A DNA stretch of 62,585 nucleotides from the NCBI RefSeq assembly GCF_002854065.1, contig NZ_CP024148.1; one strand, given 5' to 3'. This DNA comes from Escherichia coli. GTDB taxonomy: Bacteria > Pseudomonadota > Gammaproteobacteria > Enterobacterales > Enterobacteriaceae. Of the stretch, positions 9,001 through 18,000 are shown piece by piece (positions within the stretch are counted from its first letter, which is position 1; every line of letters begins with the position of its first letter). A program made the position numbers.

Positions 9001-12000
9001 CGGCAGGATCAACTCCCCAAATAACGTCTCTATACTTATACCAACGAGGTAAAAAAATACCAAACACAGGAGTTGTTTTCTTACAGCGCCAACAAGACTG
9101 GTGACTTTCCGCAATATAAAAACGTTGCGAAAAAACATTGTAATCATGTTCATTTAATTCTTTTATCCACCGAATAAAATAAATTGGATTTTTCCCCTGT
9201 GGAACAAACCATTTCCGTTGTTCTTGGTCCCATTGCGCCCCTTTTTGTTTAGCCAAATCCTTTTCTTCAAACGGAACATTTAAATAAAACCGCGCCATAG
9301 CCAACTTAACTCCAGTATTCTGTTCTGATGATGCACCAGGATAGATATCAAAACTAAACAAAGAGTGCAATTCCGCCTTTAATGGCTCATTCATACCCGC
9401 CTCGTGCGGGTTTTCTTTTGCCTGAAATATGGAGGAACACCATGAAATCCATCATTTTATCGATGGTTGCCGCAAGTGCTATCGCACTCTCTGCCCCCGT
9501 ATATGCGTCTGATCCGTGTGCTTCCGTTCTTTGTCTGTACGGTAAAGCTATCGGTAGCGGCGGCGGGAGCGAATGCAAAAGCGCCGAAAAGGACTTCTTT
9601 AATATCATCAAAAAGAAAAAGGGATCTATTCGCTGGAGCAAAACCTTTGATGCCCGAAAAGCGTTTCTTAATCAATGCACGACCGCAGACCCTGCGGCGA
9701 TCTCAAAAATCATGAGTAAGTTCGGACGTTCCTGGGGTTAACCATGAAAAAGATCATTATTATTCCCACCACATTATTGCTGAATGCGTGTTCCCATGCC
9801 CCTGAACCCGCACAGGCAAAAGGAGGTTGGTATGAACTGAATACCACAATTGAGCAGGTAAGGGCAGACACATACTATAACGGGGTGGTCCTTCAGCAGC
9901 CCGTGTCACAGCCAAACAGCACTGTTCAATACAGCAATGATAATTATCTCAAAAAGGAAGCCATAAACGTAACTCCCGCGCCTCGTATTGCAGAAACCGT
10001 AAAACCACGTTCTGAGCAATCAGCGACAGCGCCAAAAAACCAGGACAGTAATAATAGTTTTCTGAAGCCAACAACAAACAGCATAACTTCATCTGGTGAG
10101 ATAAAAACAGCAGCCAAAGGAGCAACTGAACAGCATTCTGAACAACCAGCACTCCCTCCCGCAAAGCCAATCAGTAGCAACAACCATCAGGCACAAACGG
10201 CACAAAAGACTGATCAGCAGACAAAACCGCGTCCTGAACAACCACCGCTAATGTCAAAAAGCGGTTTTCTGAAAAAAAACGCTAACAACGCTGTTCCGGC
10301 CACCACGCTTACAGGCCCATCAACACCTGAAAAGCAAATTTACTTTGTTCGCCATGATGGTAAAGGCTCGCTGCAAAAAGCATTAAAAGAAATTGTCCCA
10401 TCGGACTGGACGGCTGAAATATCCCCGGAGGTAACGAAAACTTTCCGTCGCACGATATCCTGGCAGGGCAACGATCAATGGCCTTATGTCCTGGATAAAA
10501 TGCTTCGCAACTACGGTCTGACGGTAATTAAGAACACCGAAAAAAGACATCTTCTGATTGATTTTCAACAACAGAAAGGGAAAACATCACAAAAAGCACC
10601 TGTATCTCCTGACAAAACCCCTGCATCTCCTGTCAGGACACCAGTTTCCTCTGACAAGTTACCTCAAAAATCGCTAACGCCTGTCACCGTTCCGCAAAAA
10701 CAGACAGAAAAACTCACCTGGAATCTTAAAAAAGGTTCGACGCTGCGGGATGGCCTCACAGAATGGGCGTCAAGTTCGCCGTGTGGTAATTCAACCTGGA
10801 ATCTTGTATGGGATACTCCTGTGAACTACAGAATAGATGCTCCTCTTATTTTCCGGGGAAACTTTGAATCTGCATTAAAAGATACGCTGATGCTTTATCT
10901 TTCAGCAGATAAACCGTTATACGCATTCAGGAATATTGCACAATGCGTAATCACAATTAAAGACACACAACAGGAGTAATCGCTATGGGTTGGTTCTTCA
11001 GCTTGCTCCTGATATTCCTGTCAATAGGCAGTTACTATCTGACAGATAACAATAACCAAACCATACAGCGAATGAAGTTGCTTCCTGCAAAACAGGAAGC
11101 AATTGAATTTGTCCATTTCGCAAATGTTATCAATGACTATCTTTATAAATATCCAGACAAACGTAATTCAGGAGGAACGTTAACATCTGAGCAAATCGGT
11201 ATAACACCCGTTTATGATATTCATCATATTATTTACGGTAAGCGAGTTTATATCTGGTCTGCCGATACAGAAGGTCTGATGTCTGCTTTGCAGCAGCAAA
11301 CAAAACATTCAGCAATGTTAGGAAAAGTAAAAAATAAGAAGATTGTCGATAATCAGGGGAATGATATGGGCGTTCCCGTTCCTTCCTCCATTCCAGAAGA
11401 GGCTATTGTACTCATTAACTAAATATCCCCTGACAAGGGGATTCTGAACTGGAGTCTGCATATCCGACACATCATTATGTGGGCCGGATATATCGCTACG
11501 GCGCGGACTTCAGTCCAGAAAATCTTTACCGGAGATACCCATGCAGGATAATGATGATGTCAGCGAGCTTGATATTGCCACTCGTGAAGTCCTTATCTTA
11601 CGATGCAATCTTATTCAGCTTGCTTCTGAATATATAAAAATAAATCCTCTTAAAAACACCCGAATCTACACAGATTTAATTCATCGTTCAGCAGATGTTA
11701 TCAAAAATATCGAACAAGGTAACATCCAGAATAAACATAATTATCTGTCACAGGATGTAAAACATACGCTTGTTTTATACGACCTGTACAAATCAGACTT
11801 TGAACAATGTCCGGGGGCAAAATCCCTTATACCTGTCAGGGAAAAAATTGTCTCGCTGAAAGAACTTCTTTCCGGCGCTAATGAGCTGGACAGTATCGTT
11901 CGTCGCCCCCGCAGGAAAAAACGATCTTCACGAATTTAATATCAGGAGATAAATCCCTTATGCAGTTATCAGCGGCTGTTCTGGCAGCACTGATAAGTCA

Positions 12001-15000: not shown

Positions 15001-18000
15001 GGATTTGATACAACCGTTGTCCTGGACACAAAAAACGGTATTCATCCTGCCTGTGAACCTTTACTCGCGGTCCTGTTTTTCTACAAAGAAATCATGCAAC
15101 GCGGCGGCAATCTGATGCTCTCCATTATTGAAGAGTTCTGGATGCCAGCAAACTTTCCCATGACACAAAGCATGATTAAAAGCGCACTGAAAGCGGGGCG
15201 CATGAAAGGTGAAATGATGTGGTTAACATCACAGTCCCCGGAAGACGCCATAAACTGCGCAATTTTTGCGGCGCTGGTACAACAAACCGCAACGAAAATT
15301 CTCCTGCCCAATCCCGATGCAAAATGGGAAGGATATAAAGAAATTGGGCTTACTGAAAAAGAGTTTGAAAAACTCAAAGAACTGACGAAGGAGTCAAGGA
15401 CCATGCTCATCAAGCAATCTGGCTCTTCTGTTTTCGCCAAAATGGATTTGTTTGGATTCGATGAGTTTATCCCCGTGCTTTCTGGCTCTGAAACTGGCCT
15501 GTCTATTTTTGATGAGATTATTGCTGAAAAAGGAGATGTAGCTCCTGATATCTGGATACCAGAACTCCTGAAACGCCTGAACGGTTAATTTCTCTGTTTT
15601 ATACAGAACGGAAAACAATATGAAAATCCCCCTCATAATTGCCTCCGCGCTATTAATTAGTGCATGTTCTCACACCCCCAATCCTGTGCAGAAAAAAGGG
15701 GGATGGTTTGAGTTAAACACAGCAATTGAACAGATCAAAGCAGGTGATTATTAATGGAAAACACAAACTATTATGAACATTCAAAAAAAGAAGCCTCCAA
15801 AAAGAAATTTGAAGAAAAGAACGAAAAAAAGGATTATTTCAAGGCCATACGTGACTTTGAGCGCAGTGAAATTGAAATCATAAAGAAAAAGGCAAAAACA
15901 TTTACCATTCTCGCCATTGGTGAATTTGTTGTAATTTGCATTCTTGGTTTCGCAATAGCCTCCCTTGCTCCATTAAAAACCGCTGTACCGTTCCTTGTGC
16001 GAGTGGATAACAGCACTGGATATACTGATATTGCCCCTCAATTATCTGATGCTAAGGAAAGTTATCAGGATGTTGAGACTAAATATTTCCTGTCAAAATA
16101 TCTCATTAACTATGAAGCATACGACTGGCAGACTATTCAGGAACAGGCCGATACAGTAAAAACAATGTCTTCCCAAAAGGTGTTTTCAGCTTATGACACC
16201 ATGATTCGTGCTGATTCCTCACCACTGAACATTCTGAAAAACAACTACAAAATTAAGGTCCAGATTAATTCAGTAATCCTTCTAAGGAAGGATATGGCGC
16301 AGGTGCGTTTCAAAAAAATGGTACTGGATTTATCTGGTAAACCCGCCCCCGGATACAGAGCAACAGAGTGGATTTCGACGATTTCTTTTGACTGGGATAA
16401 AGATATCAAAACAGAAAAAGAGCGCCTTGTGAATCCGCTGGGACTGCAAGTTCTGAGCTACCAACCTGATCCAGAGGTTATAAAATGATGCTTAAACGCA
16501 CTACTGCGATAGTTCTTTTGTCGATGCTACAAGTACCTGGTGCTTTAGCAGCTATGTACGGCACACCATCGGAACGAGACGGGCGTATTCAGACCGTAGA
16601 TTATAACGAGCAGGATGTATTTAATGTGCGCGTAAAAGCAGGCGCACAAACAACAATTAAGTTCGGACAAGACGAAACAATAAAAGATGTCGGAATTGGT
16701 GATCCAGAAGCCTGGTCAGTATCGGTCAGGGACAACACTCTGTTTCTGCGTCCAAAAGCAGAAGAACCGGATACAAACGTTACCGTTCAGACAAATAAAC
16801 ATATTTATCCTCTCTACCTGATATCGACCACAAAACAACCCACGTATATTCTGCGTTTTAATTATCCGAAACCACCGTCAGCTACCGTAATGACTGAAAG
16901 GCCATTTCCATGCACTGATGGTGGAATAATTAATGGTCATTATCAACTCAAGGGGGACAAATCAATTTTCCCTTATCAGGTATGGGATAATGGCGAATTT
17001 ACATGTATGAGATGGACTAATAAACAGGAAATTCCGGTCCTTTATCGTGTTGATGCCGATGGAAATGAACATCTGGTTAACGGAGACAGAAATAAAAACA
17101 CAATGGTTTACTATGACGTGGCTGAAAATCTCCGTTTGCGCCTGGGTGATCAGGTTGCAGATATCAGAACATCATCAATCGTTAATCGTCCGTGGAATAA
17201 AAAAGGTACGTCAAACGGAAAAACACGAGTAGAGAAGTTCAGCTATGAAAAATAAAGATGATGAAAAAAATAATGACGCGGGAAATCGCGGAATTATCGA
17301 AGTAAAAGGTAAAGCAGCACCAAAAAAAATATTAATCCTCATCATATTACTGATTGCCGCGTTATTTGTGATCATTATCTTGTTTAAAGTTCTTTCACGA
17401 GAACAGGTCGTTCAGCAAACACCTCTTGAGAAGTCTGACGAGACACTGGTCACAAATACCAACAATGGCGTTTCACTGACAACAATGATGAAAAACATCG
17501 AAGAAAAGGAAAAACTCGATGCCGCTAACCGCAGGAAAGCACAGGAGGAGCAAGAACAGAAACAGGCAGACAATGCCCCGTCAGCGCCAGCATCACAAAA
17601 GGCCGATCAAACAGCCGTCAATGTGATAGCCAACGGCACTCCCCAAACCGCCAGTGGAGATCCAAACCAACCACAACCATTGCCAAAATCCATCCGTCAA
17701 CTGATGGGCGACACAATGGTGAAGATCGACAATCAGGAACAAGGCGAAAAAAACCAGGAAAGAGATGATTTACAGGGCAGTCAGTACGCAGACGGAAAGG
17801 TATCCCCTGTGCTGAACCGCCGATATCTGTTATCTGCGGGAACAGCATTATCCTGTGTGCTCAAAACGAAAATCGTAACCTCTTATCCCGGTATCACAAT
17901 GTGTCAGTTAACACGAGACGTCTGGTCGGATAACGGCGAAGTGCTTCTTGCCCGTAAAGGAGCATTACTGATCGGGGAGCAGAATAAAGTCATGACACAG

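Follow-up and report, generated by a model that had tools for sequence, protein, structure and literature searches.

The thin-pilus lipoprotein PilL of an IncI2 mcr-1 plasmid carries a VirB7 motif paralogous to the 44-residue lipoprotein TraF

Why does a single plasmid encode a short and a long lipoprotein that begin with the same segment? The question is raised by a 62,585-nt stretch of Escherichia coli DNA, referred to here as the window, which is a complete IncI2 mcr-1 plasmid. A first-pass annotation had described an untracked, VirB7-like ORF of 44 codons whose sequence parallels the N-terminus of a 411-aa, PilL-like lipoprotein, and had proposed that the two proteins serve as alternative outer-membrane anchors for the T4SS (type IV secretion system) and the pilus.

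All features considered here lie on the plus strand. The small ORF was confirmed at 15620..15754, between traE (VirB4; 13231..15588; Pfam CagE_TrbE_VirB), which ends immediately 5' of it, and traG (VirB8; 15754..16488; Pfam VirB8, 5.9e-42). As the first-pass annotation had it, its stop codon overlaps the traG start as TAATG; traG has its own AGGTG Shine-Dalgarno sequence within the 3' end of the small ORF. These genes are followed by traH (VirB9; 16485..17255; Pfam CagX, 4.5e-50) and traI (VirB10; 17245..18384; Pfam TrbI, 6e-45). The genes traA (VirB6; 6484-7479) and trbJ (VirB5; 7476-8129), a pair with Pfam TrbL and T4SS matches, are set apart from the remaining virB cluster at 6484..8129, a separation already on record (PMC11873049). 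The long lipoprotein gene, pilL (9744..10979; Pfam TcpQ and tblastn), is placed 5.9 kb 5' of virB8 and ahead of virB1. Directly 5' of it lies a gene of the kikA/trbM family (9382..9741; Pfam TrbM; RefSeq start at 9442), and pilM (10985..11422; Pfam PilM, 1.6e-13) adjoins it on the other side. The virB block lies between pilM and pilN, so that pilN (22008..23651; Pfam Secretin and Secretin_N_2) is found about 11 kb 3' of pilL; it encodes the lipoprotein-type thin-pilus secretin, whose N-terminus reads MNKKLLCLLISSFLLSG followed by the lipobox cysteine.

The small ORF is the known TraF/VirB7, poorly annotated rather than new. An identical sequence is carried by R721, whose TraF (NP_065361) a 2006 paper equated with VirB7 (PMC1762418), and traF (virB7) is already a named gene in TP114. 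The description of the ORF as untracked therefore holds for most RefSeq/PLSDB annotations, from which it is missing, and not for R721 or TP114. In a sample of 40 RefSeq E. coli records, about 7 annotate it as 'hypothetical protein' (WP_000701233.1), and some GenBank records label the product 'traF protein'. Residues 1-16 (15620-15667) form a predicted signal peptide and lipobox ending in LISA and Cys16, with Ser at +2, as in a small lipoprotein of the VirB7 type. Residues 17-44 (15668-15751; SHTPNPVQKKGGWFELNTAIEQIKAGDY) make up the mature VirB7 motif. TraF thus resembles TrwH of R388 (7O3J), TraN of pKM101 (3JQO, 2OFQ) and A. tumefaciens VirB7, likewise lipoproteins of about 45 residues encoded just 5' of virB8. 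Its cognate VirB9 is, as in the TrwH and TraN systems, homologous to TrwF and TraO: TraH matched TrwF at 3e-26 and TraO's C-terminal domain at 3e-9 in the PDB. The gene order differs, since virB5 and virB6 lie elsewhere in IncI2 and traF follows virB4, whereas the VirB7 genes of relatives are located between virB6 and virB8.

The VirB7-like character of the small ORF was borne out at the level of the family. A single TraF sequence gave no match in PDB, Pfam or NCBIfam; a profile of 18 family sequences matched TrwH (R388 VirB7, 7o3j_C) over its full length at E 8.5e-9 and TraN (pKM101) at E 0.015. On this plasmid, traF and pilL were the sole significant matches to the VirB7 profile, and a scan of all its ORFs for the lipobox-plus-motif pattern returned the same two copies only. 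In the profile alignment, ELNT of the TraF family falls on PVNKT of TrwH and TraN. The W-[FY]-E-L-N-T of TraF differs from the P-V-N-K-T of TrwH/TraN-type VirB7, and distant versions read FPINT and VPVNH; judged from these alignments, P-x-P...K-G-G-W-F-E-L-N-T reads as a local variant of the P-[ILV]-N-K VirB7 motif. An exhaustive search of 1.84 billion proteins with the module profile yielded 21 matches. Besides IncI2 PilL, those matching the module in one stretch were proteins of 38-78 residues (most 38-58), all with a lipoprotein-type signal peptide, and the small relatives occupy the VirB7 slot between VirB6 and VirB8 in every readable contig. At E < 1e-3, IncI2 was the only source of the module on a long protein in this search.

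TrwH and TraN bind the C-terminal domain of VirB9 directly. According to the titles of their PDB entries, both are found within outer-membrane core complexes together with the C-terminal domains of VirB9 and VirB10. The alignment of the segment common to TraF and PilL with the VirB9-binding P-V-N-K-T suggests that the two lipoproteins may share VirB9 as a partner, instead of acting as two separate anchors. The proposal of alternative anchors is thus upheld as far as the homologous N-terminal module is concerned, but this module appears to be more than a membrane anchor.

PilL itself is a composite lipoprotein of the type IVb thin-pilus system. Its signal peptide and lipobox (residues 1-16; 9744..9791), read from the sequence, end in LLNA and the cysteine, and are followed by the VirB7-like module (residues 17-45; 9792..9878; SHAPEPAQAKGGWYELNTTIEQVRADTYY), recognized by its similarity to mature TraF and by the profile. 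A low-complexity linker (residues 46-190; 9879..10313), rich in P, Q, S, T, N and K, is probably disordered: 78% of its residues are disorder-promoting, and its first residues have pLDDT values of 40-45 in the AlphaFold2 (AF2) model. The middle region (residues 191-290; 10314..10613) gave no Pfam match, even at E 10, and is common to IncI1-type PilL. The C-terminus (residues 325-411; 10716..10976) is a TcpQ domain of the BfpG/TcpQ type (PF10671, 8.6e-15), scoring 55 bits over residues 325-407 against a gathering cut-off of 27. This domain also matched PDB chain 9u5s_R at E 0.001, a chain that is BfpG according to the BfpG structure paper; following that paper, it may be regarded by analogy as an N0-like domain of the secretin-binding type, and PilN is its expected partner, given the likeness to BfpB-BfpG.

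The assignment of the long protein as PilL-like also proved sound. IncI1-type (R64 family) PilL, likewise a lipoprotein adjoining pilM, shares the middle region and the C-terminal TcpQ domain with it, the latter being shared as well with BfpG and TcpQ of type IVb pili; tblastn identities were 29-34% over residues 184-411 (E down to 1e-31), with alignments beginning at residues 184-214. This homology, the LLNA lipobox, the adjacent pilM and the linked pilN place the protein in the PilL family. PilL residues 17-45 are homologous to the VirB7 motif past the lipobox, and a mature-only profile built from stand-alone VirB7s matched residues 16-40 at E 6.3e-13. With 411 residues and a gene 5.9 kb from virB8, PilL departs from VirB7 in size and position; it is a carrier of the VirB7 motif and is not classed as a VirB7.

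The first-pass annotation had named confinement of the similarity to the signal peptide and lipobox as the outcome that would speak against it, but the similarity reaches well beyond them. TraF and PilL align by BLASTP with 26 identities in 44 positions (59%), 0 gaps and E 3e-18, and 18 of the 28 residues past Cys16 are identical (64%). The Smith-Waterman score was 109, against 24.7 ± 3.8 for shuffled sequences (n = 5000, maximum 47), and the mature part stood at z ~22. The corresponding DNA is 64% identical, with codon-position matches of 30/44, 35/44 and 19/44 at first, second and third positions, respectively. By the Nei-Gojobori method, pS between traF and the corresponding 5' end of pilL is 0.81, which is saturated, and pN is 0.23; given as ranges, pS is 0.81-0.95 and pN 0.21-0.23, far under pS. 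Saturated synonymous sites together with low pN point to an old duplication kept by protein-level selection, and the saturated pS and low third-position identity argue against both a recent copy and gene conversion. Among 120 IncI2 PilL variants, variable sites amounted to 3 of 29 in the module and 8 of 87 in the TcpQ domain, compared with 45 of 145 in the linker (Fisher p 0.023). The PilL module is therefore an ancient paralogue of the TraF motif under purifying selection.

IncI1-type plasmids possess I-type (Dot/Icm-like) channels without VirB9, unlike IncI2, and the PilL proteins of I-type plasmids are without the module; the VirB7 profile had no match in IncI1-type and Serratia PilL, in which the post-lipobox segment is unrelated. 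Five other, related plasmids that combine virB genes with a thin pilus have a TcpQ lipoprotein on which a weaker VirB7-like motif follows the cysteine at an equal distance. In three of the five (pET49, a Buttiauxella contig and C. freundii P3), no stand-alone VirB7 was found between virB6 and virB8. On pET49, the only complete plasmid typed as conjugative among those five, the TcpQ lipoprotein was the sole profile match (E 2.9e-7; next best 0.49). Part of the full-length profile score on the five plasmids is due to the signal peptide, and a mature-only profile matched their TcpQ lipoproteins weakly (E 0.003-0.74).

A known precedent for such an architecture is Xanthomonas citri VirB7 (XAC2622; PMC3093366, Souza et al. 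2011; 6GYB), which, in apparent analogy to PilL, combines a VirB7 motif at the N-terminus and an N0-type domain at the C-terminus in one lipoprotein; BfpG, a TcpQ homologue, has been reported to be structurally similar to this C-terminal domain (BfpG structure paper). The two proteins differ in several respects. In PilL, about 280 residues, including a probably disordered linker and an extra region, separate the two parts; the pilL gene is not located in the virB6-virB8 slot; the N0-like domain of PilL is one of the TcpQ/BfpG family, which by analogy would bind the type IVb pilus secretin; and the IncI2 plasmid also keeps a short VirB7.

Structure predictions were obtained with AF2 for fusions of VirB9, a 30-residue Gly-Ser linker and either TraF(16-44) or PilL(16-62), from alignments of 14-15 rows only. 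The VirB9 model resembles 8rt6_B, 6gyb_B and 3jqo_B. Both fusions contain one and the same ordered element, which consists of a strand at [FY]ELN and a short helix, with pLDDT values in 10-residue blocks of 70/84 for TraF and 87/82 for PilL, against 31-40 for the Gly-Ser linker and 40-45 for the PilL tail. In the TraF fusion, the ordered residues are GGWFELNTAIEQIKA (blocks of 70 and 84, strand and helix), while the linker is not ordered. Judging by no more than pLDDT and the strands assigned by DSSP, we infer that the module may contact the C-terminal domain of VirB9, and TraH would accordingly be the partner that TraF and the PilL module have in common. Given the similarity of PilL to TraF, the PilL outcome was almost bound to follow.

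The VirB7 of A. tumefaciens is a required protein that stabilises VirB9. TraF differs in being dispensable: in the published transposon sequencing (Tn-seq) of TP114, traF was essential in no replicate or tested condition, whereas traB, C, D, E, G, H, I, J and K were essential. A requirement for channel function, typical of A. tumefaciens VirB7 but not strictly defining for the family, is therefore not seen in TraF, and frameshifted traF alleles occur naturally, one of them on the conjugative pC21-1. The non-essentiality of traF could be an artefact of a 135-bp gene, or VirB7 may simply not be required in this T4SS clade. In the same work, pilL insertions had no effect on mating on agar, and thus the channel can also do without PilL; pilL was essential only in situ, during mating in the gut, like pilN-S, pilU and pilV. 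This pattern for traF and pilL is more in keeping with redundancy than with a strict separation of roles.

Taken together, these data lead us to regard as somewhat probable a model in which TraF is the VirB7 and PilL is a secretin partner with a functional VirB7 motif serving as a backup for TraF, perhaps tethering the pilus machine to the T4SS. TraF would be cleaved by signal peptidase II and lipidated at Cys16, and within the outer-membrane core complex its 28-residue mature part would bind VirB9 (TraH) at the C-terminal domain. PilL would pair with the thin-pilus secretin PilN through its TcpQ/BfpG-type domain, while its 29 post-cysteine residues would occupy VirB7 sites on VirB9. It could thereby stand in as VirB7 in the absence of TraF, which would account for the dispensability of TraF, and may link the secretin complex of the thin pilus to the channel for DNA transfer.

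Several alternatives must be weighed against this model. It appears unlikely that the PilL N-terminus is a leftover of a recombination that gave pilL the 5' end of a virB7, acting as an export and lipidation signal plus spacer with no VirB9 binding. Normal mating of pilL mutants on agar, where no T4SS role is visible, would agree with a leftover, as would the working of I-type PilL with a different N-terminus and the position of the virB block between pilM and pilN, which is consistent with a past rearrangement. However, export and lipidation require the signal peptide and lipobox only, and the 28 residues past the cysteine retain their 64% identity despite saturated synonymous sites. The module is also as invariant as the TcpQ domain within IncI2, and it recurs on the TcpQ lipoproteins of the five other plasmids, three of them without a separate VirB7. 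Ongoing conversion between traF and pilL, with no selection on the PilL copy, is hardly credible: two homologous stretches 5.9 kb apart on one replicon might allow it, but the codon-position identities (19/44 at third positions), the 64% DNA identity and pS of 0.81-0.95 are the opposite of what recent conversion leaves and contradict it.

A slightly less likely explanation than the leftover is that traF is decaying or optional in IncI2, either because this T4SS clade does not need the VirB7 function or because PilL has assumed it completely. In its favour are the non-essentiality of traF in every Tn-seq replicate, the absence of a stand-alone gene from three related plasmids, and the loss of the traF reading frame at a poly-C tract in some 58 of 514 IncI2 plasmids, including pC21-1 (C8), which conjugates at 3.6e-4 per donor. 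Against decay, 449 of 514 IncI2 records are of this plasmid's type over an 80-base stretch surrounding the start of traF, and a protein sharing at least 99% identity with the 44-aa product is encoded in 413 of 578 plasmid records. Moreover, the family is conserved at the protein level across many lineages, and pN lies well under pS whether traF is set against the PilL copy or against the IncX4 orthologue. Far more doubtful is a common partner other than VirB9, such as VirB10, TrbM/KikA or peptidoglycan. In IncI2, pET49, Buttiauxella and Fukatsuia, trbM/kikA does lie directly 5' of the gene for the TcpQ lipoprotein, and kikA of TP114, like pilL, was required only in situ in the Tn-seq; nevertheless, the module is homologous to TrwH and TraN, both placed in core complexes with the C-terminal domains of VirB9 and VirB10, and AF2 predicts it to be ordered with VirB9 alone present.

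The model of PilL as a secretin partner that backs up TraF builds on a small gene that was already known. What is new here is that PilL carries an ancient, selected paralogue of the VirB7 motif, that this segment is predicted by AF2 to become ordered next to VirB9, and that a similar arrangement recurs on five other plasmids.

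The 9.1-kb stretch around traF and pilL is 99.8-100% identical to hundreds of IncI2 plasmids of 57-65 kb, typed MOBP and MPF_T, and the window carries mcr-1 on the minus strand (42669-44294; NCBIfam MCR-1, 1300 bits); on these grounds the window is a complete mcr-1 plasmid of the IncI2 type. A gene for an IS5-family transposase (44424-45404) adjoins mcr-1, the two occupying 42669-45404. Gene order begins with virB6, virB5 and an EexN-family lipoprotein gene, followed by a minus-strand DUF5710 gene (8585-9394), kikA/trbM, pilL (9744-10979), pilM and ygeA; then come virB1, B2, B3, B4, the 44-aa ORF, virB8, B9, B10, B11 and virD4, and after these a small P-loop gene, pilN (secretin), pilO and pilP. 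Judged by their size and by how RefSeq annotates R721, the ORFs 3' of pilP correspond to pilQ to pilV and the shufflon. The thin-pilus genes are found in two parts (9744-11422 and 21479-31242), with pilL and pilM 5' of virB1-virD4 and pilN-pilV 3' of it, whereas pilL, pilM and pilN are contiguous in I-type plasmids.

Several smaller features accompany this arrangement. An identical 17-base hairpin, ACCCGCCTCGTGCGGGT, flanks the minus-strand DUF5710 gene at 8558-8574 and 9395-9411, with a T-rich run after each copy, resembling paired terminators. The 132-aa ORF ygeA (11541-11939), between pilM and virB1, matches no Pfam or NCBIfam family. RefSeq, where VirB9 is annotated as TrbG/VirB9 family, places its start at 16554 of the window (MYGTPSER...), so that the annotated protein lacks the stretch 16485-16553 and with it the signal peptide MMLKRTTAIVLLSMLQVPGALA; VirB9 homologues of IncX4 and other plasmids keep their N-terminal signal peptide, and a start at 16485, overlapping the virB8 stop, is probably correct.

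The first-pass annotation had described a short and a long lipoprotein with a common N-terminus. Both ORFs are present, at 15620-15754 (44 aa, TraF) and from 9744 (411 aa, PilL), the stop codon of the shorter overlaps the virB8 start as TAATG, and the N-terminal parallel is borne out by BLASTP (26/44 identities, ungapped, E 3e-18) and by a local alignment score of 109 against 24.7 ± 3.8 for 5000 shuffles. That the likeness stems from the signal peptide alone can be ruled out, as the mature parts match by themselves, with 18 of the 28 residues after the lipobox cysteine being identical. At the DNA level, identity between the two copies is only 64%, and divergence is greatest at third codon positions (19/44 matching); recent duplication and gene conversion are likewise ruled out, since synonymous sites are saturated (pS 0.81-0.95). 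Together with the low pN of 0.21-0.23, this saturation indicates that TraF and the PilL module are old paralogues, each kept by protein-level selection. No mention of this shared module was found in the open-access literature searched.

The 411-aa protein can be identified with high confidence as PilL, a thin-pilus lipoprotein of the TcpQ type. Its residues 325-407 form a TcpQ domain (Pfam, 55 bits), and this region matches PDB chain 9u5s_R (E 0.001); the paper citing 9U5S deals with the BfpB-BfpG complex, in which BfpG, a bundle-forming pilus protein, is the homologue of TcpQ. Over residues 184-411, identity to the PilL proteins of IncI1, IncK and related plasmids is 29-34%, and a lipobox is also found on the IncI2 secretin PilN. 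In the Tn-seq study of TP114, pilL was required only for mating in the gut, as were pilN-S, pilU and pilV (PMC7508951). The VirB7-like match is restricted to the first 45 residues, in contrast to PilL of I-type plasmids, whose post-cysteine segment is unrelated and has no match to the VirB7 profile. The module is separated from the conserved C-terminal half by a linker of 145 residues, 78% of them P, Q, S, T, N, K, E, G or A; the middle region of PilL that follows the linker (residues 191-290) matches no Pfam family even at E 10. Two records, NZ_CP076233 (80% PilL match) and NZ_CP030284, were left out because of their many frameshifts.

The short ORF had been called untracked, which is true of most database records and untrue of the plasmid literature. 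Automated annotation mostly drops the gene, leaving no entry in most PLSDB/RefSeq records, and the protein appears as the "hypothetical protein" WP_000701233.1 in about 7 of 40 sampled E. coli RefSeq records. It is nonetheless a named gene, traF/virB7, in R721 and TP114: R721 carries a traF sequence identical to that of the window and was used here in place of TP114 (MF521836), in which the gene is listed as "R721 traF (virB7)" (PMC7508951, Supplementary Data 1). A 2025 survey also counts VirB7 among the 12 IncI2 T4SS subunits (PMC11873049).

By itself, the 44-aa sequence matches no Pfam or NCBIfam family and gave only chance matches in the PDB, and word-indexed protein searches with the 44-aa and 411-aa proteins found nothing beyond near-identical IncI2 sequences. 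A four-sequence profile of the module, run against 1.84 billion representative proteins, gave 21 matches at E below 1e-3. Five long ones (166 to 1870 aa) were treated as noise because only short or repeated stretches matched; P0129, the one of these five that was checked, is a low-complexity repeat. All the remaining matches except IncI2 PilL are proteins 38-78 residues long (most 38-58) that carry a signal peptide of the lipoprotein type, and in every readable contig these small VirB7-like genes lie directly 5' of virB8. In canonical virB1-B11/D4 clusters the gene preceding this slot is virB6; where virB5/virB6 are elsewhere, it is virB4. In more distant systems, the position of W[FY]ELNT is taken by FPINT (Neisseriaceae) or VPVNH. 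With hmmsearch, the VirB7 profile picks up the VirB7 genes of the related loci L011-L015 and the Buttiauxella PilL. An 18-sequence profile matches TrwH, the VirB7 of R388, over its full length (7o3j_C, E 8.5e-9) and TraN of pKM101 (E 0.015), with ELNT aligned to PVNKT in both; this link was obtained only with the family profile, a single sequence being insufficient. TraF is thus, with high confidence, a VirB7 with a variant motif.

Homologous VirB7 proteins are also encoded by IncX4 p86-24-2 (L006 2944-3078), as a 44-aa protein (…CSSPPQPKQAEGGWYELNTTIQDVKARTM) between virB4 and virB8, and by Citrobacter pRHB30-C03_4 (L005 2444-2584); neither plasmid carries a TcpQ lipoprotein. The IncX4 gene is unannotated in the record examined, IncX4 being the other main mcr-1 vehicle. 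Two Neisseria T4SS loci contain an extra ORF between virB6 and the small VirB7 gene (L012 9079-9792, 237 aa; L013 9222-9746, 174 aa), which shows a lipobox when translation is taken to begin at an internal start codon (140 aa, M[TS]GCAQ...).

The PilL module bears marks of constraint. Among 120 IncI2 PilL variants, variable sites number 3/29 in the module and 8/87 in TcpQ, against 45/145 in the linker, and PilL residues 16-40 are matched (E 6.3e-13) by a profile that comprises only the mature portions of stand-alone VirB7s. The post-lipobox segment of IncI2 PilL is, with high confidence, a selected paralogue of the VirB7 motif. AF2 was applied to two fusions, in which a 30-residue Gly-Ser linker connects mature VirB9 with either TraF(16-44) or PilL(16-62). 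The underlying alignments had 14-15 rows, and 12-13 of these were paired VirB9-VirB7 fusions. Both models share one ordered element, made up of a strand at [FY]ELN and a short helix, with pLDDT values per 10-residue block of 70/84 for TraF and 87/82 for PilL, compared with 31-40 for the Gly-Ser linker and 40-45 for the PilL tail. On strand assignment and model confidence only, the TraF or PilL segment would contact VirB9; Foldseek matched the VirB9 part of the fusion model to TrwF, Xanthomonas VirB9 and TraO, a comparison uninformative on peptide contact. We infer with moderate confidence that the PilL module binds VirB9 and can replace TraF. That would explain why traF was non-essential in Tn-seq, why frameshift alleles occur and why some relatives have no separate VirB7.

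Such relatives belong to a group of five other plasmids, in which the virB cluster is directly joined to a TcpQ lipoprotein gene and pilN, pilO onward: a Buttiauxella contig, the complete Erwinia tasmaniensis pET49, C. freundii P3, a Pantoea ananatis plasmid and a Fukatsuia plasmid. Gene order in the pET49 type differs from that of the window, with virD4/trbM followed by the TcpQ lipoprotein gene and pilN, and pilM placed after pilV. The TcpQ lipoprotein carries the motif P-x-P...[KE]-G-x-[WFR]-x-x-[LMAF]-[NE], about 10 residues after the cysteine, in all five (CSSAPPLATPKGEFVDMNT in pET49). Three of the five lack a stand-alone VirB7, since virB6 there either directly adjoins virB8 or lies just 94 nt from it; a VirB7 profile search of the whole of pET49 returned the TcpQ lipoprotein as its sole match (E 2.9e-7; next 0.49). 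Where a plasmid encodes both proteins, their motifs look alike (GDWQDANT/GDWVDFET in Pantoea, GGWFELNT/GGWYELNT in IncI2). Without the signal peptide, the five distant TcpQ motifs score weakly against the profile (E 0.003-0.74), and the bona fide small VirB7 proteins of Pantoea and Fukatsuia give equally weak mature-only scores.

Evidence on the need for TraF comes from the TP114 Tn-seq, at about 1 insertion per 5 bp, in which no replicate, in vitro or in the gut, scored traF as essential, whereas all other virB homologues were essential (PMC7508951). virB8 has its own ribosome-binding site, AGGTG, within the 3' end of traF; its expression could therefore persist when traF is not translated. 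A natural counterpart to these insertions is found in sequenced plasmids. Directly after the traF ATG, 65 of 514 IncI2 records have a poly-C tract of six (n=20), seven (n=7), eight (at least 33) or nine (at least one) residues, of which only C7 leaves traF in frame. This variation could reflect slipped-strand phase variation of VirB7, or homopolymer sequencing error. In pC21-1, which conjugates at 3.6e-4 per donor (PMC8510248), traF is C8 and out of frame, and pC21-F1, a laboratory-derived cointegrate of pC21-1, reads C7; the C6 plasmid pChi7122-3 has an intact PilL module. The window's own traF start (15620-15640), to which the loci L016-L020, L033 and L034 are related, is of the stable form ATGAAAATCCCCC.

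A tentative proposal, which we hold to be possible and somewhat doubtful, is that PilL is two-headed in plasmids combining virB with a type IVb thin pilus. Its N-terminal VirB7 motif would insert into VirB9 of the channel outer-membrane complex and its C-terminal TcpQ domain into the PilN secretin; PilL would then act as VirB7 or as its backup and physically link the mating-pair-stabilising pilus with the DNA-transfer pore. A separate VirB7 such as IncI2 TraF would be redundant where retained, and the poly-C tract might switch traF on and off in one sub-lineage. More speculative than the binding to VirB9 is the idea that the long flexible linker would let PilL span the channel outer-membrane complex and the PilN secretin. 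The design recalls that of Xanthomonas VirB7, a VirB7 motif plus an N0 domain (PMC3093366), but the domain family, the spacing, the position of the gene and the partner machine are different in PilL.

On the practical side, most automated annotations lack traF, and the RefSeq start of VirB9 omits its signal peptide. IncI2 plasmids are the main mcr-1 carriers, and for transfer in the gut they depend on the thin pilus as well as on the VirB channel (PMC7508951). If the PilL motif works as proposed, it would account for the unexpected published dispensability of TraF (VirB7) in TP114, and a double mutant would offer a simple test of how both machines are coordinated. It would also mean that a type IV pilus component can be common to, or dock on, a type IV secretion core complex, and that the combination of a VirB7 motif and an N0-type domain, so far found in Xanthomonas, extends to enterobacterial resistance plasmids.
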